Shown: positions 20,978-33,067 of the stretch, piece after piece
How the letters are laid out: each line of letters starts with the position of its first letter
How positions within the stretch are numbered: the first letter of the stretch is position 1
IMG/VR virus record: IMGVR_UViG_2541047883_000004
DNA: 42,149 nt
Direction: 5' to 3' (one strand)
Source: a virus
Taxonomy: Duplodnaviria > Heunggongvirae > Uroviricota > Caudoviricetes
The notes under the pieces: model-generated
What the model was told of the DNA's origin: nothing
The model's database searches: none
The model's input: the letters and a program-made list of their open reading frames with translations, nothing else
Translations under genes and position numbers: made by a program

Positions 20978-21151
20978 CTAGATTAAATCAATCTTGATAT
21001 CATAGCTTTCAAGACCAGTCATTTTTTCCCGTGCAGTAAACTGGATACTGGTAACTTCTTTCCCGGTCTTTTTCTTAAGCTCAATGATTTTTTTTGTTAT
21101 ATATTCAGAAATATCTGCTTCTGTTTTTGTTTTTAACTCTTCAATGTTCAT
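20978..21151 (-). CDS. gnsB: GnsA/GnsB-family protein
   Basis: 57 aa MNIEELKTKTEADISEYITKKIIELKKKTGKEVTSIQFTAREKMTGLESYDIKIDLI, near-colinear with E. coli GnsA/GnsB as recalled; SD GAGG. Confidence 0.7.
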   Translation of the reverse strand: MNIEELKTKTEADISEYITKKIIELKKKTGKEVTSIQFTAREKMTGLESYDIKIDLI

Positions 21152-21323
21152 CATTTCCTCTTTTAGTCTGTTATGACTTTCCTGGTACACAGTAGTGTCA
21201 ATTATATGGAGCAAACGTATAAAAGATAAGATGAAACATCGCAATAATCAACATACGACGGTCTAAATTTCACACAAACAGATAAAGATGATTATCATTT
21301 ATTATCAATGCATTAGAATCAAA

Positions 21324-21626: not shown

Positions 21627-21842
21627 TCACTTTCTTAAATCTAACGATAGACGGCTAACATTTAAGTATTGTGAAATATTATCAAATGTAATCATCATTG
21701 ATTTACAAAAGATACATTTTGCCCCGAAAGGATTCCTGTCAGAAACATCAAAAGATGATGTTCTATACTGAGAACCATGGCAACACGGGCATCTAAAGTG
21801 AATATGGTTTGTAATATTATCTACCTCAAAGTGCCACAACAT
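21627..21842 (-). CDS. Possible zinc-ribbon small protein (CPCC ... CIFC)
   Basis: ORF with four Cys in ribbon spacing, ending directly before the terminator. It overlaps the csp 3' end, so the start is uncertain. Confidence 0.3.
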
Positions 21843-22038
21843 GAACAGCCGCGGGGCCTTTAGGTCCGTTCTCAATACCAAATTCGACTTCCTGATTCTC
21901 AGTTAACGTTTTGAAATCGTTGCTCTGAATAGCTGAGAAATGGACAAACACATCTTTGCTACCATCTTTCGGCGTGATGAAACCAAAACCTTTTTCAGGG
22001 TTAAACCATTTCACTAAACCAGTCATTTTGTTAGACAT
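21826..22038 (-). CDS. cspI: Cold-shock protein, CspA family (CspI-like)
   Basis: [38 protein letters not shown] ... with RNP1/RNP2 motifs; long AT-rich 5' leader (22042-22400) typical of csp genes. Confidence 0.8.
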
Positions 22039-22401
22039 CATTATTACCTTTTGAAGAAGTTAGCCCTTGGGCAGAATGGTCCGAAAAAAAATATCAGAGA
22101 GAAAAACCAACAAGGAAATCTCAAGAGGTACAAATAATAAAATTATAACAATGACTGCTTCAGATAATTTTGTAACAAACCAGAACACCATTAACGCATG
22201 ATTAACCAACCATAGCAAGGATTACTTTTGTAAAGAAAAACACACGAATGAAACAATAGCTTTATTTATTAATAAAACGTGTCATTCTGTCTAATGACCT
22301 TTTATCTTACCCTTAAGATTTCAAGGATTTTGACTCATGGAAGAGTCCTTTTTATTTAAATTTCACATTCAGCGCTAAAAATAATCCGATTTAATATTAA
22401 T

Positions 22402-24712: not shown

Positions 24713-25426
24713 CTAAGAAAATCTTGATAAATATTGGTGCGGAGGCACACCAAAATATCCTCTAAAAACACTTACAAAATATGATGCATTGTCATACCCG
24801 CATATTCCCGCCACCTTGCCGACAGTATGGTTACTGTAGATCAATAATCTTTGCGCCATCATCATTCGTTCTTCAAGAATTAATTTACTAAACGATAATC
24901 CTTCGTCTTTTAATTTTCTTTTTAACAAACTCTCGCTCATATATAATCTTGAAGATATATCACAAAGTCTCCATGACGCTGAGATATCCGAGTGAATAAT
25001 AGCCTTAACTTTACAACCTAAGCTATTAAGACTTCCGAACAAAAAACTTTGCACTATTTTCTCTGAAGATAAGACAGCAAGACATGCAAGTGATATTTGA
25101 TTTCTAACTACATCCACGGTTTTGCTATCACAATTCAAGCATGCAACCAAGTTCCTTAACAATGAAAAATCTTCACATTCTACTATCAAGTATGACGGAT
25201 AAAACCTTCTTACAGAAAAAGGTGAGAGTGTGTAGTTTTTAAAGAAATCATTAACTGTTTTCTCCTCAACATCTACGATCATTAGATGATCTGTATTTGA
25301 CGAAAAAAGATCTTTTAAATTGTATTCGATGAGGACAGCACTTCCTTTTTTAAACAAAATATCTTCTTTACCAATTCGGACACCAAACGAGTTCAACACC
25401 AAAATGACAGAACATATGTATGGCAT
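24713..25426 (-). CDS. AraC-family transcriptional regulator (AppY-like)
   Basis: N-terminus MPYICSVILV resembles AppY (MDYVCSVVF) as recalled; C-terminal AraC HTH (... GICGYDNASYFVSVFRGYFGVPPHQY); SD GGTGG. AT-rich codon usage. Confidence 0.8.
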   Translation of the reverse strand: MPYICSVILVLNSFGVRIGKEDILFKKGSAVLIEYNLKDLFSSNTDHLMIVDVEEKTVNDFFKNYTLSPFSVRRFYPSYLIVECEDFSLLRNLVACLNCDSKTVDVVRNQISLACLAVLSSEKIVQSFLFGSLNSLGCKVKAIIHSDISASWRLCDISSRLYMSESLLKRKLKDEGLSFSKLILEERMMMAQRLLIYSNHTVGKVAGICGYDNASYFVSVFRGYFGVPPHQYLSRFS

Positions 25427-25832
25427 ATTATCCACCTGATATCACTGGGGTTACACCAGGTAAGTATAGGTGGAAAATCAATATTCGCCAGTTCAACAAT
25501 AAGGAAAATCTCATTGCATCACAACTATAAAACCATGTGTTTAACTCACAAAAAACAAATCATTAAACTAATCTGTTATATTATAATAGCTGCGTGCAAT
25601 AATAATATTATATACTCTTAATATTCACTTGAAATATCTTCATATAAAAACAGATTGAATAAAATCTTTTGGGGCTGGTATGTTTACCAACATTAAATTG
25701 CATCTCAATGTTTTCTTCAGCGTGAACAGGATTTTTATACAAACTGACACTATGGGTATCATAGTGTAGTTTTTACGATTGTAAATATCCTGCATACAGG
25801 AACTCATCACTTTCAGATGATATCGCATACAG

Positions 25833-26792
25833 TTAATTCACCATCAGTCTTAGAGCCAGTTCTTCCGGATAGGGATCGAAGTAATTCTGTGTAAGCAAGT
25901 AATCATTAGGATACTCACCCAGATAATGCTTCAGCAGAGTCAACGGCGCAAGAAGAGGCAATGTGCCAAAGCGATAGTTAAGTATAACCTCGGTCAACTC
26001 TTTACGCTGGCGTGTACTTAAGTAATTACTAAAATACCCCTGTATATGCATCAGCACATTCGTGTGATTTTTACGTGATGCAGGTTTTCTGAGAATCGCC
26101 ATCAGCTTATCACGATACACCTCAAAGTATGATTCAAGGTCCGCCCACTCGTGTATTGCAGCCACAAATGGTCCCATATCTTTATAGCCTGCCTGACTAT
26201 GCGCCAACAACTGAAGCTTATAACGACTATGAAAAGCTAATAACTCTCTTCTTGATAATTTCTCCTTGTAAAGGTGATTGAGCTCATGCAAAGCAAAAAC
26301 TCTTTCAACAAAATTCTCACGAAGCACTGGATCATGTAATCGCCCATCCTCTTCAACCGGTAGCCAGGAAAACTTTTCCATCAAAGTGCTCGTAAATAGT
26401 CCCACTCCATCTTTACGACCTCGATTACCATTTTCATCATAGACACGCACGCGCTCCATGCCACAGCTGGGAGATTTAGCACAAACCACAAACCCCGATA
26501 CATCCTTTAATTTGTGCATATAAGAACGACTAAACTCTGTCATTCTCTCTGTCACATCCTCATTCTGGTCGTGGCTGAAACACATCCGTATATTTCCTTG
26601 CTTCGAGCGCACAAGACGTAGAGCAGGACGCGGAACTGGCAGCCCTATAGCCATTTCCGGACATACTGGTCTGAATGTTACCCATTCCACTAATTTGTCC
26701 ATTAAAAAGTCAGCTCTTTTGTGACCACCATCAAAACGAACAGCAGAACCGGCCAAACAACCGCTGATTCCAATCACAGGTTTTTTTATCAT
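25833..26792 (-). CDS. DUF523 (TudS-like Fe-S) plus DUF1722 fusion protein
   Basis: N-terminal GISGCLAG, VCPE and SPSCG Cys pattern as in DUF523/thiouracil desulfidase proteins; the C-terminal half is DUF1722/YbgA-like; SD GGGAGG. Confidence 0.65.
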   Translation of the reverse strand: MIKKPVIGISGCLAGSAVRFDGGHKRADFLMDKLVEWVTFRPVCPEMAIGLPVPRPALRLVRSKQGNIRMCFSHDQNEDVTERMTEFSRSYMHKLKDVSGFVVCAKSPSCGMERVRVYDENGNRGRKDGVGLFTSTLMEKFSWLPVEEDGRLHDPVLRENFVERVFALHELNHLYKEKLSRRELLAFHSRYKLQLLAHSQAGYKDMGPFVAAIHEWADLESYFEVYRDKLMAILRKPASRKNHTNVLMHIQGYFSNYLSTRQRKELTEVILNYRFGTLPLLAPLTLLKHYLGEYPNDYLLTQNYFDPYPEELALRLMVN

Positions 26793-28059: not shown

Positions 28060-29148
28060 TTAGGCCAGCACACCAATTGCCAGCGCGCGATCGATAAATC
28101 GAAAAATCAGCTCCAGTTGGGAGCCATACTTCTCTTCAAATGCCACGGTATCCGTATGCAACTCGTCGTGATGCTTTCTGCACAAAGGCAACACAAAGAG
28201 ATCATGTGCTTTGGTTCCCATTCCGCCCTGCCCGTGACCAATCAGATGATGCGGATCGTCGGCTGGCATCCCGCAGCAAGCACACGGCTGTGTCTTAACC
28301 CAGCGTGTGTATTTCTCCTTAACCCAACGGTGACGTTTAGGCAGCTTCATGAAAGATTCCGGAGACTCTGGATCAACGGTGATGCTTACCACCGTCTTTT
28401 CCTGTGGTGGTTTTTGTTGCTGGTGGGCGTAAGGCAACGGTGCAAGATTTTTTGTGCGTTGTTTCAATATGCTGGTGGCGGTCTGCTCTCCCGGTACGAT
28501 GTCGCTCTCGCGGTACACCGAGCAGATTTTTTCCGCTGGTAATCCCAGCGAACGACGTAATACCGCTTCCGGTAGCGCGTCCGCCACCTGATTGCGGAGC
28601 GCCCACCAGGATAATTCAGCCAGAGATAATTCACGCTCCTGCGTACCGCTTATTGCGTGACCGATGACGTCAATCATCCATGCTGACAGGTTTTGATGAG
28701 CAAGTTGCTCGAGTGATTCGGATGTCTGGTCACGCAGTTGGTTGTCGCAGTGCCAGCACAACACCATTGCGCCGGTACCATAACGGTGAATGACGGTTTC
28801 GCTGTGATGATAATCGCCGTGCGGCCACTGGCAGGATTTAATATGGCGCAACAGCCAGTCAGACAATGCACCAGCACCACCAGCAGCACGAATCACCCGT
28901 GCGTTACTGAAAAACGGCAGCAATGTTTTGTCTTCCACCAGCGGCTGGCGAACGGCAGGAACGACCCCGGACGGCAGATTACGCATGCTTTTCGGTTCCG
29001 GCTCCACCAGTACCCGGGTATTGTGGAATACCGGCATGGATTCACGGCCTAGTTTAAGGACCACCAGCCCAAGCTCTGGCACCAGAACAGGTCTAAGTAA
29101 TACCCGCACGTTACCTCCAGATCCGTTGCTGGAAAGTGCGGGACGCAC
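28060..29148 (-). CDS. YdfU-like DUF968 protein (Cys/His-rich C-terminus); start uncertain
   Basis: C-terminal CACCG ... [10 protein letters not shown] ... CRKHHDELH motif cluster; sits directly upstream of Q as ydfU does in Qin. An internal start at 29037 is an alternative. Confidence 0.55.
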
Positions 29149-29389
29149 GTGGTGGGCGTTCGGAATAAGGCAGCCTGACAGAGATTATCCAGTGCCGATA
29201 GTCGAGACTGAGAGCTTTCTTAACCTCGAACCCGCGCCTGCGGTAAGAATGAATCAGCCATTCGGCCTGTTCTTCAGTGCATGGGGGATGCTGGTACCAA
29301 TCAGATTTAAATGCGTGAGAGCGCCGCCCGTGCCTGCTGGCAAAGACGGCAGAATCATCAGAATTGTGTAATTTGGTATCGTGCGCCAT
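29111..29389 (-). CDS. Hypothetical nin-region protein
   Basis: 92-aa ORF only. Confidence 0.35.
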   Translation of the reverse strand: MAHDTKLHNSDDSAVFASRHGRRSHAFKSDWYQHPPCTEEQAEWLIHSYRRRGFEVKKALSLDYRHWIISVRLPYSERPPRASRTFQQRIWR

Positions 29390-29462
29390 CGGTTGTCTCT
29401 GCTGGCGCAGCAGGTGCCAGTTGTTCAGGCTGGCCTGTGGATTGTAAACCAGAATACGTAAA

Positions 29463-29487
29463 ACAAAAACCCGCCGAGGCGGGTATG
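29463..29487 (-). terminator. Rho-independent terminator after the HTH-peptidase gene
   Basis: Minus strand reads ACCCGCC-TCG-GCGGGT followed by TTTTGTTTT. Confidence 0.6.
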
Positions 29488-29495
29488 AATGAGAA

Positions 29496-30641
29496 TTATT
29501 TTTGTTTTATGGTAAATGAAATAACATTGTCAGAATGAATCATATCTGATTCTTTAAATCGTGTAATTGCAGATAACTCATTTAAGGGAAGAGCAAAGAT
29601 ATCAGTTAACTCAGTTACCTTTATGATTGAATGCTTATCAAGAAGTAAAAGTAACTTATTAAGTAACTCAGGCTCTTCTTTTGGGATTGCATCATCTAAC
29701 GGCTCCCTACGATGGAATGGCGCTAATTGCTTAAATATATAGCTTTTCTGATTATCGCTGATTAACTTAAGGCTATGACTCCTCATGGCAATACTACCGA
29801 TAGATGTAATCCAACGTAGTTTTAATCGTTCTAACGCTGATAAATTTGGACTATAAAATTCACGCCCGAAAGTGGTGGCTGGCATTAAAAAGCTGGAGGC
29901 AAAATAATCGGCCTGCAACTCCACCAGGTCGAATAATTCTTTATCATTCAGGTAGTCATCCTCCACTGCCCTATGCATAATTAAATGGCCAAGTTCATGA
30001 GCAAGACTAAATCGCATGCGAACAGCCGTCTTCGAGCTATCTAACATAATTAAAGGCCGCCCATTATGCCAGAACGAAAAGGCATCAACTTTCTCACCAG
30101 AAGGTAAATGAGAAACCACGATTCCTTTATTTTCAACAAGTCTAGTTAAATTGAGTATTGGACCATCACCTAACCCCCAAAAACGCCTTAATTGGGTGGA
30201 CATATCCTCAATATCAGATAGAGACAGAACCTCAAAATCAATAATATCGAATTCAGGCAGAACCACATCTGGTAATTGAGCATATTTTAGACATTCATCC
30301 AATATTAATGCCGCCCAACGCCCACGTGTTTTCCCTGTAACTCGAGCCTTTTTGGTCGCAGTTGAACGACTTCTAAAATGAATCGCCCCCTCCAGAGATG
30401 GAGAAGCACTGGAGGCTAAGAAAAATCGTTCTGGAAATCCTAACACCTTGGCTATTGCAGAAAGTGTATCAGCAGAGGGAGACTTCAACCCCTTCTCAAA
30501 TGACGAAATAGCTTGTCTTGAAATATTGAGCACTCTGGCAAGTTCAGCCATCGTCAACCCTTTTGCCTCTCTTGCCTCCTCAAGGCGACGAGGATTAAAC
30601 GATTTATCAGTAAATGGTGTTTGTGCGATATTCATGCTCAT
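29496..30641 (-). CDS. XRE-family HTH fused to ImmA/IrrE (M78) zinc metallopeptidase
   Basis: N-terminal HTH (GLTMAELARVLNISRQAISSFEKG); HExxH motif HELGHLIMH with downstream ELQADYFASSF typical of ImmA/IrrE. The ATG overlaps the stop of the upstream gene (ATGA). Confidence 0.8.
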   Translation of the reverse strand: MSMNIAQTPFTDKSFNPRRLEEAREAKGLTMAELARVLNISRQAISSFEKGLKSPSADTLSAIAKVLGFPERFFLASSASPSLEGAIHFRSRSTATKKARVTGKTRGRWAALILDECLKYAQLPDVVLPEFDIIDFEVLSLSDIEDMSTQLRRFWGLGDGPILNLTRLVENKGIVVSHLPSGEKVDAFSFWHNGRPLIMLDSSKTAVRMRFSLAHELGHLIMHRAVEDDYLNDKELFDLVELQADYFASSFLMPATTFGREFYSPNLSALERLKLRWITSIGSIAMRSHSLKLISDNQKSYIFKQLAPFHRREPLDDAIPKEEPELLNKLLLLLDKHSIIKVTELTDIFALPLNELSAITRFKESDMIHSDNVISFTIKQK

Positions 30642-31252
30642 GATTGCTGTGATTTAATTATTTGTTCGGTAAGAATCTTGATTTTATCTTCAATCTCAGA
30701 ATCCACATTTTCTGCTTCAACTTCTACCATCGTCATAATTGGTAAAGACTCAGTATAAAGAATCCCGTAATTATCCGAAGAAGGAACAGTTAAATTCAGT
30801 TTGGACAAGTGCTGATTACTGCCATCATGTAACATATAAACATGTCCACCAGACGCTCTCCCATCCAGGGAGTCGGCATTTTCATCCCCAAAATTCAATT
30901 CATAATTTTGATTAGCGTAAACAGCTCTATACAATGCCTGCTTAGGAAGTGGCGCATTACCCGATAAATGATGTGCCGTCATTTTCCAGTTGTTCGAGTG
31001 AATCGCAATGTGTTTACAATTTTTAGCAGCATTGCTACCGACTTCAAAATCCAGCCCCACACGCTTAGCCGCATTCTCAAGCAATGCATCGGCATAAAAC
31101 CAGCGCAAATATGACTGTGCTTGAGCCCAAAAAGAACCAAACTCTTTTGCCTTCATATGCGAATGAAGATAAGCCTGTGCTAACGCGATCGAAAGCTCTT
31201 TGCGGCACTCCTTGTCATATGCTTCTAACAACTGTTGAGATAAATTCTGCAT
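30638..31252 (-). CDS. Hypothetical 204-aa protein, first gene of the cassette
   Basis: ORF with SD AAGGA and its own candidate promoter (TTGACA boxes at 31270-31310, minus strand). No TM segment or motif I recognise; AT-rich codon usage. Confidence 0.6.
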   Translation of the reverse strand: MQNLSQQLLEAYDKECRKELSIALAQAYLHSHMKAKEFGSFWAQAQSYLRWFYADALLENAAKRVGLDFEVGSNAAKNCKHIAIHSNNWKMTAHHLSGNAPLPKQALYRAVYANQNYELNFGDENADSLDGRASGGHVYMLHDGSNQHLSKLNLTVPSSDNYGILYTESLPIMTMVEVEAENVDSEIEDKIKILTEQIIKSQQS

Positions 31253-31327
31253 GACCGTAATATCCTTGTTGTTTTGGTGTCAACCATATTTCCATTTAAC
31301 ATCGACTTTGTCAACCAGGTAGATGCT

Positions 31328-31351
31328 AGAAAAACCCGCCGAAGCGGGTTA
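31328..31351 (-). terminator. Rho-independent terminator after hok
   Basis: Minus strand reads AACCCGC-TTCG-GCGGGTT followed by TTTTCT. The core is 19/20 identical to the terminator at 29465-29484. Confidence 0.6.
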
Positions 31352-31418
31352 AGCGCGGGTGCATTGAGGATGCCTGACTCATCAGAGGTGGCGAGGGATT
31401 TCTCCCCCGCCTAGTCTC

Positions 31419-31574
31419 TTACTCCTCAGGTTCGTAAGCTGTGAAGACAGCGACCTCCGTCTGGCCGGTTCGGATTCGTACCTCGCAGAGGTCTTTCCTC
31501 GTTACCAGTGCCGTCACTATGACGGTTAAACAGATGACGATCAGGGCGATTAACATCGCCTTTTGCTGCTTCAT
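31419..31574 (-). CDS. hok: Hok-family type I toxin
   Basis: MKQQKAMLIALIVICLTVIVTALVTRKDLCEVRIRTGQTEVAVFTAYEPEE, colinear with Hok (... [28 protein letters not shown]) as recalled. Confidence 0.85.
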   Translation of the reverse strand: MKQQKAMLIALIVICLTVIVTALVTRKDLCEVRIRTGQTEVAVFTAYEPEE

Positions 31575-31640
31575 AGCCTGCTTCTCCTTGCCTTCCGGCA
31601 CGAAAGAGGCTAACCTACATGTGTCTAGCATGAAATTGGC
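31560..31640 (+). ncRNA. Candidate Sok-like antisense RNA region over the hok leader
   Basis: Position only, from established hok/sok organisation. Promoter and 3' end not identified in the sequence. Confidence 0.25.
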
Positions 31641-32197
31641 CTCAGATTAATGTTAAGCGTCTTGCAGGACGCGTAATGTTAACTGGGGCTTTTCTCTATC
31701 TGCCGTTGGTGTTCATGCCTGAGGCAGATAGCCTCAAGCACCCGCAGCAATTCTACTTAACTCACGTCACCTCGCCAATATAAAATCAATCAGAAAGGCG
31801 ATCCGTAAGAACAACAGCAAGACAATAAATTGCCATTACAGCCGCAATAGCTAGCGCACATTTGAGAACCAGCACGACAACCTCCTGAATTGGAAGTACA
31901 CCAGTCCTGATAAATATGAGGCTGTCTCGTCAGTGATTCAATACAACTATTGGGTATAGTTTCTCAGATTTTTTTCTGTGGAAATTGGACACAACACCCG
32001 CTCACCACCAGCACTTCTTTAAACACACCTAGTCAGGATCCCGCCTGACCTTTTATAACACGTAACTGTTAACTGACAGGCAATAGCCTGTCGGATATTA
32101 CAATGTCAGCTCTTGGTGCGAAGCTGTCGCACTAATTCTGTGAGCGAAGAACGGACATTTTCATTGTTGATACAGGATACATTGAAGTAGTCAACCA

Positions 32198-32446
32198 ATG
32201 GCTTTTCGCATAGTCTATATTCCAGCTGCAACAGTTACTAATGATATTGCTATATTTGCGGATCATCTTGAATCTTTTTTGTCTGAAAACTGGGTAGAAT
32301 GGGGTAAGGCCTGCAACGAAATTGAAGCACTTACAGGAATCAATCTCTCAAAAAATCAACTAGCTTACCGAACAGCAACTATCAATGCTAAAGGCAACGT
32401 ACCAGAAATGCTCGAGACTATTCTTGCTAAATCTGCTGGGCGATAA
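32198..32446 (+). CDS. Hypothetical protein
   Basis: 82-aa ORF in an AT-rich accessory stretch. Confidence 0.3.
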   Translation: MAFRIVYIPAATVTNDIAIFADHLESFLSENWVEWGKACNEIEALTGINLSKNQLAYRTATINAKGNVPEMLETILAKSAGR

Positions 32447-32599
32447 GCACGAGTGAAGATACTGTTCCAAAAGCCTTCTATTCAATAAATTACGAAGTGC
32501 TAACTAACCGACTATGTACAGAGCAAATCACCTTGAATTGCTCTTGATTGAATGGTGAAGAATTATGAGGGTGATAGTCCTTCCCACCCTCAATTAAAA

Positions 32600-32827
32600 T
32601 TAAAGGTATTTACGTGAGAAATTTTTCTTAACCACACTACTAATAAAACTATTTAGCCCATGCCCAGCCTGGGCTAACTCTTTCATCCTAGAGACCGTTG
32701 AAGCCCCTGGTTTTGTAGAATCGTAAACGTATTTCCATCCATCTTTAAACTGTACTGTGATAGCATCTGGAGTAATCTCATAAAACACTATACCCGAATT
32801 ACCGCCTTTATTAGCATAAGCTGGCAT
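32600..32827 (-). CDS. KTSC-domain small protein
   Basis: 75 aa with a Y-x-Y ... F pattern resembling KTSC domains. Confidence 0.4.
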   Translation of the reverse strand: MPAYANKGGNSGIVFYEITPDAITVQFKDGWKYVYDSTKPGASTVSRMKELAQAGHGLNSFISSVVKKNFSRKYL

Positions 32828-33067
32828 TTTTTATCCTTATTAAATTATAGCAGAAAGTTGCTACACTCTAGTCATATGACCCATGCTAAACCTAATTGTT
32901 GAGCTAAGTCATAATTTCGATCATTTGATGAATGTAAGTTATTTGACAGGCAGAATTAACCATACACTGTAATGTCCGTTTTTGGTACAAAGATGCCAAT
33001 CACACTAGTTCTAGTCTTATGCAACCGAAGTGTCAATTAATATCTGAACTAATGCTCTTTAATCTCG

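Follow-up and report, generated by a model that had tools for sequence, protein, structure and literature searches.

The window analysed here, a stretch of 42,149 nucleotides, comes from a lambdoid prophage of E. coli that is essentially Tritos, the phage of strain LF82, and that encodes its own CI/Cro/Q set. Between its hok and rem genes lies a cassette of two minus-strand genes with a terminator copy on each side: rmrT (30638..31252), for a predicted toxin of 204 aa, and rmrA (29496..30641), for a predicted antitoxin of 381 aa. Both open reading frames are exactly as described in the original prediction, including their coupling by an ATGA overlap on the coding strand (TCAT on the plus strand, 30638-30641). 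The cassette directly adjoins hok/sok; an Rfam scan of the window returned sok as its sole match and none inside the cassette. The AT-richer composition that had been noticed was confirmed (GC content of 39.9% vs 49.2% for the 42-kb window), though this value corresponds to the 8th percentile, other regions being lower.

The flanking terminators, previously described as near-identical, share a 20-nt repeat in which 19 of 20 positions agree (95%). The left copy (ACCCGCCTCGGCGGGTTTTTG, 29465..29484, minus strand) is the rho-independent terminator of the cassette and its downstream boundary, located 11 nt past the rmrA stop codon and running on into rem-side sequence common to the empty site; the terminator scan found it terminator-like, with 6 pairs. 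The right copy (ACCCGCTTCGGCGGGTTTTT on the coding strand, 31330..31349, minus strand) is that of hok and represents the upstream boundary, running on into hok-side sequence that is also common to the empty site. The scan did not report this copy, but when read from the sequence it presents the same stem as the left copy followed by a TTTTT tail. The empty site was found in phage vB_EcoS-640R1, where hok and rem are contiguous and a single terminator copy is present, confirming that the cassette is an insertion between these genes and supporting the proposal that the terminators are the footprint of its acquisition. The hok-rem slot was also found with different cargo.

The 381-aa protein matched HTH_3 (2.4e-16, aa 20-73) and Peptidase_M78 (9.7e-19, aa 170-287), in accordance with the XRE HTH and the intact HExxH motif reported for it; HELGH occupies residues 215-219 and ELQADYFA is found at 241. 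Its alignment with the PADLOC RmrA model PDLC03947 covered nearly the whole protein (aa 11-380 on model positions 7-381 of 383, E = 5.5e-102), and further matches were obtained with PADLOC capP (1.5e-21) and capH (1.7e-10), as well as with NCBIfam spr1629 (4.8e-55, with a score under the cut-off). Residues H215, E216, H219, H223 and E241 were invariant across 25 diverse homologues, RipB included, and the C-terminal region was also conserved. As judged from these residues, the metalloprotease centre of RmrA (HExxH plus the downstream Glu ligand) is intact.

For the 204-aa protein no recognisable motif had been reported, and this held for Pfam and NCBIfam, neither of which gave a match, but not for the PADLOC RmrT models. 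The direct matches to PDLC03933 (7.5e-10) and PDLC03934 (6e-8) were weak and partial (aa 47-161), which places the Enterobacterales toxin subfamily at the edge of the RmrT model. A search with a toxin profile found 78 representative clusters, and all 57 full-length relatives found in this way matched RmrT PDLC03933 (best 1.8e-53); a profile of the close relatives, compared with the Bacillus subtilis RmrT (PDLC03933, 4.2e-75), gave an hhalign value of 97.2% (E = 4e-11). Over its full length the protein corresponds to PHROG 35814. On the evidence of these profiles it is a divergent RmrT, of a family already covered by PADLOC PDLC03933/34/37/38/40. The protein is acidic (pI 5.7), and it has no hydrophobic segment (maximum KD19 of 0.7), for which reason a membrane toxin was ruled out. 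A literature search found no reports of toxicity or defence for the PDLC03933-cluster toxin family.

Co-occurrence of the two genes, which had been proposed as a check, was evaluated in a set of related loci obtained by a search with closer toxin sequences. An rmrA gene was directly 3' of the toxin gene in all the loci with room for it (n = 23/23), either overlapping it by 4 bp or following after a short gap; the toxin/antitoxin identities covaried (100/100, 93/88, 72/80, 65/70, 55/66 and 51/63%). The contexts of the pair included positions next to cI, between ea22 and nin, behind a primase and near Q, as well as a Bacillus prophage; in one prophage, from Yersinia, the cassette lies immediately downstream of cI, in the slot where lambda carries its rexAB exclusion genes. 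Among 11 contigs the cassette was 99.6-99.9% identical, with flanks just 91-96% identical in nine of them. These comparisons show that the pair is always inherited together in the loci analysed and, by the pattern of identities and contexts, is transferred whole from one phage backbone to another, a clean illustration of how diverged lambdoid prophages exchange moron cassettes at a slot bounded by terminators.

The promoter/operator region (31278..31317, minus strand) contains a -35 TTGACA (31314-31309), separated by 17 nt from a weak -10 AAATAT (31291-31286), together with two boxes of the 9-nt direct repeat TGGTTGACA (31309-31317 and 31278-31286), 31 bp apart, a repeat that occurs nowhere else in the window. 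One box overlaps the -35 (31317-31309) and the other the sequence immediately 3' of the -10 (31286-31278). The pair of boxes was kept on the promoter in all the proteobacterial loci but L044, which has one box, and in homologous loci of different contexts the boxes stand at about -64/-33 from the ATG. No minus-strand promoter upstream of rmrT was called by a consensus promoter scan, because the -10 AAATAT matches the consensus at just 3/6 positions. In published RNA-seq data of the LF82 lysogen, LF82_281 and LF82_280 were 30x and 14x above the prophage background, respectively (PMC9928086 Table 1). The cassette promoter was accepted by relying on the conserved layout and these expression data, and not on the consensus scan; the candidate promoter suggested at this position stands on that basis, whereas its supposed TTGACA boxes are the 9-nt repeat TGGTTGACA, presumably the operator of the RmrA HTH. 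The rmrT-rmrA operon was thereby shown to have its own conserved promoter region, in addition to its own terminator.

We interpret the region, with a probability of about 0.8, as a RosmerTA (RmrT-RmrA) toxin-antitoxin cassette, an autonomously expressed moron residing in the hok-rem slot of a lambdoid prophage. The original prediction of a RosmerTA-type architecture with an uncharacterised effector was correct as to the functional kind, but not as to novelty, since models for both RmrA and RmrT match: the scan of defence models returned a characterised system, RosmerTA, an outcome named beforehand as refuting the claim. As far as these model matches go, the system type is already catalogued and the pair brings no new component to it, and a standard defence-system scan would probably flag the pair. 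The cassette does not change the current understanding of RosmerTA, a widespread and mechanistically obscure defence/TA family. It represents a natural, expressed E. coli example, carried by the pathogen AIEC LF82 and by the isolated phage Tritos, and it has a defined promoter/operator, offers clear mutational targets and comes with a toxin whose structure is confidently modelled.

The RosmerTA systems (Millman et al. 2022; PADLOC/DefenseFinder models) have in common with the cassette a toxin-first two-gene operon, a ~380-aa XRE-HTH + M78 antitoxin and a prophage location. For the E. coli OLC-716 system, which defended against phage, attempts to transform an rmrA deletion failed (Millman 2022); within the family rmrA or ripB is essential, and ClpX/ClpP conditionally essential. 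The verified OLC-716 toxin (239 aa, PDLC03935), however, is unrelated in sequence to the 204-aa toxin, and identity of the two was rejected (hhalign probability 0.1; OLC-716 belongs to PDLC03935/03932, outside the PDLC03933 cluster). The antitoxin architecture and the toxin-first operon are also those of RipA/RipB (Spr1630/Spr1629) of Streptococcus pneumoniae (PMC12795458), and the RipB homologue of S. mitis (mitis-group locus L025) matches the RmrA models. RipA (243 aa, PDLC03931) was compared by means of a homologue recovered from genomes with the published cloning primer, and presented no detectable similarity to the 204-aa toxin family (hhalign probability 0.1). The target of RipA, the DnaN sliding clamp (PLoS Genet 2025, PMC12795458), is therefore not transferable, and a DnaN-targeting mechanism was ruled out for transfer to a toxin that falls under another PADLOC model.

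Two further pairs resemble the cassette. RmrT-D5/RmrA of Gordonia phage Kita (Ernits et al. 2023, PMC10440598) is likewise phage-encoded and has an M78 antitoxin, and its anti-phage range is narrow; its toxin is membrane-anchored and depolarises the membrane, whereas the 204-aa toxin is soluble, and these properties set the two apart. E101_02645/02644 of E. coli E101 (Rousset et al. 2021 preprint) consists of a prophage-borne hypothetical toxin with a downstream antidote; it was cited by Millman as a Rosmer-type configuration and makes clpP essential. The E101 accessions are WP_001179380/WP_000481765, in contrast to WP_001180546/WP_000062344 for LF82, and the E101 suppressor T46S fits T46 of the OLC-716-type toxin and not the 204-aa toxin (Q46), which would argue against identity with the E101 pair.

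Following what is known of the family, RmrA would bind both TGGTTGACA boxes through its N-terminal XRE HTH, autorepressing the operon, and would keep the 204-aa RmrT, a soluble protein, in an inactive state. RmrT would then be released when a sensitive phage infects the cell or when the RmrA supply is lost, and the cell would be arrested or killed; such a release may provide narrow-range protection of the abortive-infection type, with stabilisation of the prophage as an incidental effect. Since ImmA, IrrE and CapP respond to a stress signal by cleaving their HTH partner, the conserved Zn-peptidase centre probably acts as the switch in RmrA too. The pairs ImmA/ImmR, IrrE/DdrO and CapP/CapH combine an M78 Zn-peptidase with an XRE HTH and are a plausible model of a stress-triggered proteolytic switch, but RmrA fuses both domains and has a toxin as its partner, and the cassette presents no CBASS genes, ICE context or evidence of a DNA-damage signal. 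Since the HTH is fused in RmrA, the options would be self-cleavage or processing of the toxin. Host ClpXP is probably involved in the control of the toxin, as in other Rosmer systems. The comparable RmrTs that have been tested (OLC-716 and RipA) are unrelated to this one, so toxicity, defence and ClpXP dependence are transferred solely via the common RmrA partner; toxicity of the 204-aa RmrT, its neutralisation by RmrA and protection against phages are predictions drawn from other RmrT families.

It is possible, if doubtful, that the cassette is mainly an addiction (post-segregational killing) module, which would stabilise the prophage or the cassette itself with no meaningful anti-phage protection. 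Its position next to hok/sok agrees with this, as does the essentiality of Rosmer antitoxins in several species; the Rosmer systems tested so far act on very few phages, or are described as 'inefficient against most tested phages' (in S. thermophilus the protection was weak or narrow), and the role of the pneumococcal member is competence induction, a physiological function and not defence. On the other hand, phage protection was measurable for at least two Rosmer systems (OLC-716 and Kita), the cassette of the Yersinia prophage is in the rexAB position, and the LF82 cassette shares its expression in the lysogen with other exclusion morons; moreover, addiction and defence are not mutually exclusive roles.

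The Xre-peptidase of the related PD-lambda-2 system was toxic when overexpressed alone and its upstream partner rescued the cells, so the roles within the RmrT/RmrA pair could be reversed or shared, with the HTH-peptidase as the harmful effector (cf. PD-lambda-2B) and the 204-aa protein as an inhibitor, sensor or substrate. An acidic, soluble protein without a canonical catalytic motif would suit such a part, and gene order in Rosmer-type systems varies (58% toxin first). We consider this unlikely, given that three independent Rosmer systems have the small protein as their toxin, with the HTH-peptidase as the essential antidote, and that the strongly conserved polar residues of the 204-aa family would fit an active site. 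A switch of the ImmR/ImmA or DdrO/IrrE kind that regulates the phage, acting on prophage induction or late genes and not in TA/defence, would share the M78 and XRE HTH domains seen in ImmA/ImmR and CapP/CapH and would fit a location just upstream of the nin/Q region, but is very improbable for a cassette that encodes HTH and protease as a single fusion and not as a separate repressor and a stand-alone protease, that has terminators on both sides, lysogen expression and an operator motif present nowhere else in the window, and that belongs to a phage with its own CI/Cro/Q, is entirely missing from closely related phages and occurs at unrelated positions in others.

Returning to the toxin of the proposed RosmerTA cassette, its fold was predicted with AF2. 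The model built from close homologues alone was unusable (pLDDT 40.5), and the 57-member alignment was used instead, yielding a model with a pLDDT of 88.4 and a pTM of 0.78. Among the named Foldseek matches of this model in PDB and BFVD, PD-(D/E)xK proteins were dominant, and the predicted alpha-beta-beta-beta-alpha-beta core superposed on Hjc, RecU and MvaI at 3.1-3.4 A over ~95 residues, with weak scores. The likeness to PD-(D/E)xK proteins (NaeI, Hjc, RecU, MvaI, Cas4) would be one of fold class, weakly scored; RmrT differs from them in having neither the D...(D/E)xK residues nor a relation at the sequence level, the toxin profile having given no sequence matches in PDB, Pfam or NCBIfam. 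In strands 80-86 and 89-95 none of the conserved positions is an Asp, Glu or Lys, and the catalytic D...(D/E)xK is absent; N78, H81 and T92 are the residues conserved in this area, as part of a larger set of N74, N78, H81, T92, R/K104, R109, N116, H142 and E181. The best lead on RmrT is therefore a predicted divergent restriction-endonuclease-like (PD-(D/E)xK-type) core with non-canonical conserved Asn/His/Thr/Arg, which suggests nucleic-acid binding or cleavage by an unusual chemistry. More tentatively, the PDLC03933 toxins may have an undescribed activity on a degenerate restriction-endonuclease-like fold, in which the acidic metal ligands would have been replaced by Asn/His/Thr/Arg, under the control of a fused repressor-protease that autoregulates via the TGGTTGACA boxes; if so, LF82/Tritos would provide a tractable model in E. 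coli for the release of a toxin by the Rosmer protease switch and ClpXP.

The cassette consists of the two minus-strand ORFs originally predicted, rmrT (31252..30638, 204 aa) and rmrA (30641..29496, 381 aa), joined by an ATGA overlap. The 381-aa protein carries the expected XRE HTH (HTH_3, 2.4e-16; residues 20-73) and a Peptidase_M78 domain (9.7e-19; residues 170-287) with an intact HExxH motif; HELGH occupies residues 215-219, ELQADYFA begins at 241, and H215, E216, H219, H223 and E241 did not vary among 25 homologues with identities down to 27%. The 204-aa protein, in which no motif had been recognised, had no match in Pfam or NCBIfam, and was matched over its full length by one PHROG of unknown function.

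Screening with the PADLOC models yielded an end-to-end RmrA match for the 381-aa protein (E 5.5e-102), which 13 further RmrA models also matched. The 204-aa protein matched the RmrT models PDLC03933 (7.5e-10, aa 47-161) and PDLC03934 (6e-8) weakly. A profile of its nine close homologues, searched against 1.84 billion representative proteins, retrieved 78 clusters, mostly 200-220 aa in length; all of the full-length relatives (57/57) matched PDLC03933 (best 1.8e-53), and many also matched PDLC03940, 03938, 03934 and 03937. A profile of closer relatives (33% identity or more) aligned by hhalign with a Bacillus subtilis prophage protein (probability 97.2%, E 4e-11), itself a strong PDLC03933 member (4.2e-75) encoded directly upstream of an RmrA homologue. 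Since both the profile relatives and the B. subtilis match point to PDLC03933, the 204-aa protein is assigned by profile similarity to a divergent branch of an RmrT family already among the PADLOC models, and the pair is predicted to be a RosmerTA system in which no component is new. The RosmerTA-type reading of the original prediction was therefore sustained, the idea of an uncharacterised new component was set aside, and the outcome it had weighed against itself, a pair matching a known system with nothing new, was the one found. The cassette adds a member to a known system type rather than founding a new one, and what interest remains is modest.

Rosmer toxins described elsewhere differ in their effects. 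In the verified E. coli OLC-716 system rmrA was not deletable and phage protection was given (Millman 2022), the Gordonia phage Kita system depolarises the membrane and protects narrowly (PMC10440598), and the DnaN sliding clamp is the target of pneumococcal RipA, which ClpX is required to restrain (PMC12795458). A prophage pair of E. coli E101 renders clpP essential, and in three Pectobacteriaceae rmrA and clpX are both essential together. Kinship with the OLC-716 toxin (PDLC03935; sequence from the Millman 2022 supplement) and with RipA (PDLC03931; a homologue found in a Streptococcus mitis genome by the published primer sequence) was not detected, with an hhalign probability of 0.1 in each case; the Kita toxin, membrane-bound unlike the soluble, acidic 204-aa protein, was set apart on these properties alone. 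The target of the OLC-716, Kita or RipA toxins cannot be transferred to the 204-aa toxin; only the antitoxin-side logic would carry over by analogy, namely that the HTH-peptidase is essential, that ClpXP is probably involved and that defence is narrow in range.

AlphaFold models of the 204-aa protein reached a pLDDT of 40 with close homologues only and of 88.4 (pTM 0.78) with a 57-member alignment, the model comprising a long N-terminal helix (14-64), a beta-beta-beta-alpha-beta-beta-beta arrangement and a C-terminal helix. Of the profile and structure searches proposed originally, the profiles placed the protein in the RmrT family, but Foldseek gave no significant match against PDB or BFVD (best E 0.07 and 0.02). 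The named, non-significant matches were mostly PD-(D/E)xK proteins (Cas4, Hjc, EcoRV and McrC, as well as R2 endonuclease, RecB-like proteins and UL24). A conserved D...(D/E)xK is absent from the toxin family, whose conserved polar residues are Y28, N74, N78, H81, T92, R/K104, R109, N116, H142 and E181. With low to moderate confidence, the model suggests an endonuclease-like fold that has diverged and whose active or binding site is non-canonical; its interest is that a confident model, with candidate residues for catalysis, now exists for the RmrT family.

In all the loci examined with room downstream (23/23), an RmrA homologue immediately followed the toxin homologue, either overlapping it by 4 bp or separated from it by ~12 nt, and toxin/antitoxin identities dropped in step (100/100, 93/88, 72/80, 65/70, 55/66 and 51/63%). 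In a Yersinia prophage the homologous pair has cI on one side and a gene for an N-like antiterminator on the other; elsewhere such pairs separate ea22 from the nin region, follow a primase, lie close to Q in a different E. coli prophage, or occur in a B. subtilis prophage. Given this adjacency, the parallel identities and the differing neighbour genes, the rmrT-rmrA pair is the unit of inheritance, and the separate inheritance that the original prediction had allowed for was not seen. The window comes from an E. coli lambdoid prophage, and its cassette region was 99.9% identical to phage Tritos, a prophage of AIEC strain LF82, and 100% identical to several clinical isolates. Of 5,426 complete E. 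coli genomes, only 41 contained the whole cassette, although 3,686 matched the query in part, with 80-99% identity; Tritos alone among 50,697 phage records encoded the 204-aa protein, and no plasmid in PLSDB did. Another prophage (locus L009) carries a further RosmerTA variant from E. coli, whose toxin and antitoxin share 56% and 66% identity with those of the window; PemK-family toxin, N6/N4 DNA methyltransferase and TerB-domain genes are nearby, surroundings (L009 207-608 and 5402-5833) that resemble a small cluster of defence/moron genes close to Q.

The cassette is neighboured on one side by hok (PF01848, 2.9e-23) and sok RNA (Rfam, 114.7 bits), and on the other by a rem-like ORF and ydfU/DUF968. 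The 20-nt repeat AAAAACCCGCCGA[G/A]GCGGGT flanks it at 29465-29484 and 31330-31349. Of the two near-identical terminators predicted, the left copy was terminator-like by consensus scan, but the right copy was not reported, although its stem (6 bp) and loop (4 nt) match those of the left copy and TTTTTCT follows (T5 tail). In phage vB_EcoS-640R1 hok and rem are contiguous, in line with the proposed insertion, and the terminator copy is single; in the alignment, rem-side homology stops just past the left copy and hok-side homology resumes at the right copy. Because this empty site has one copy and homology breaks there, the cassette is seen to be bracketed by a terminator duplication. The hok-rem slot of phage vB_EcoM-606R7 holds different cargo (L003 2070-2690), again between two hok-terminator copies: a minus-strand 130-aa ORF (2218-2610) whose N-terminus resembles a signal peptide/lipobox and which has no Pfam match. 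The two bases next to the left copy are identical for both cargos (AT after GCGGGT), and cassettes in other contexts each close with their own, different terminator. Cassette DNA was 99.6-99.9% identical to the window in eleven IMG/VR contigs, whereas the adjacent rem/ydfU and hok flanks were just 91-96% identical in nine of them (compared with window 28485-32030), which indicates a recent spread between diverged lambdoid backbones, in the same slot. The empty site, the alternative cargo and the near-identical cassettes in diverged flanks thus support the suggested terminator footprint, a clear example of cassette exchange in a terminator-bounded moron slot; the route of entry could be homology-facilitated exchange via terminator and flank sequences, or another insertion event. 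The cassette is AT-richer, as predicted (GC 39.9% vs 49.2% for the window), yet other window regions are lower still.

The coding-strand sequence ahead of rmrT is TGGTTGACA-N22-TGGTTGACA, and its first box includes a perfect -35 (TTGACA); a weak -10 (AAATAT) lies 17 nt past it, and the second box begins at the last -10 base. Only two copies of this 9-mer occur in the whole 42-kb window. In homologous proteobacterial loci the boxes are spaced 31 bp, with the start codon ~64 and ~33 nt away, a layout kept in all bar one (L044, with one box) although the neighbouring sequence is unrelated, and the B. subtilis locus has a degenerate version (GGTTGCC/GGTTGCA). RNA-seq of the LF82 lysogen placed LF82_281 (hypothetical), the rmrT counterpart, 30-fold and LF82_280 (ImmA/IrrE peptidase) 14-fold above prophage background (PMC9928086, Table 1). 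The cassette's own promoter is favoured by the conserved layout and LF82 expression, although the consensus scan called none upstream of rmrT. The RmrA HTH would use the boxes as its operator, and the operon is predicted to be autoregulated; this conserved putative operator is of interest, as is a natural, expressed RosmerTA instance in a well-studied strain (LF82).

Other parts of the window were also of note. Just past hok/sok, a second variable slot (32035-32970) holds a 936-bp segment with two small ORFs lacking Pfam matches (82 aa, 32198-32446, plus; 75 aa, 32600-32827, minus); its Tritos/LF82 counterpart is a 1.8-kb segment with an FRG-domain gene, and both sides are collinear with Tritos/LF82 at 95-99% identity. 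In the holin-Q interval, an AraC-family regulator (24713-25435; HTH_18, 3e-16), in one of the lowest-GC stretches (about 36%), and an adjoining 2-thiouracil desulfurase/DUF1722 gene (25833-26792), both minus, resemble additional moron cargo. Minus-strand GnsA/GnsB-family (20978-21244, 7.9e-33) and cold-shock-domain (21826-22041, 1.7e-31) genes lie downstream of the lysis genes, where the GC of the window is lowest (about 35%).
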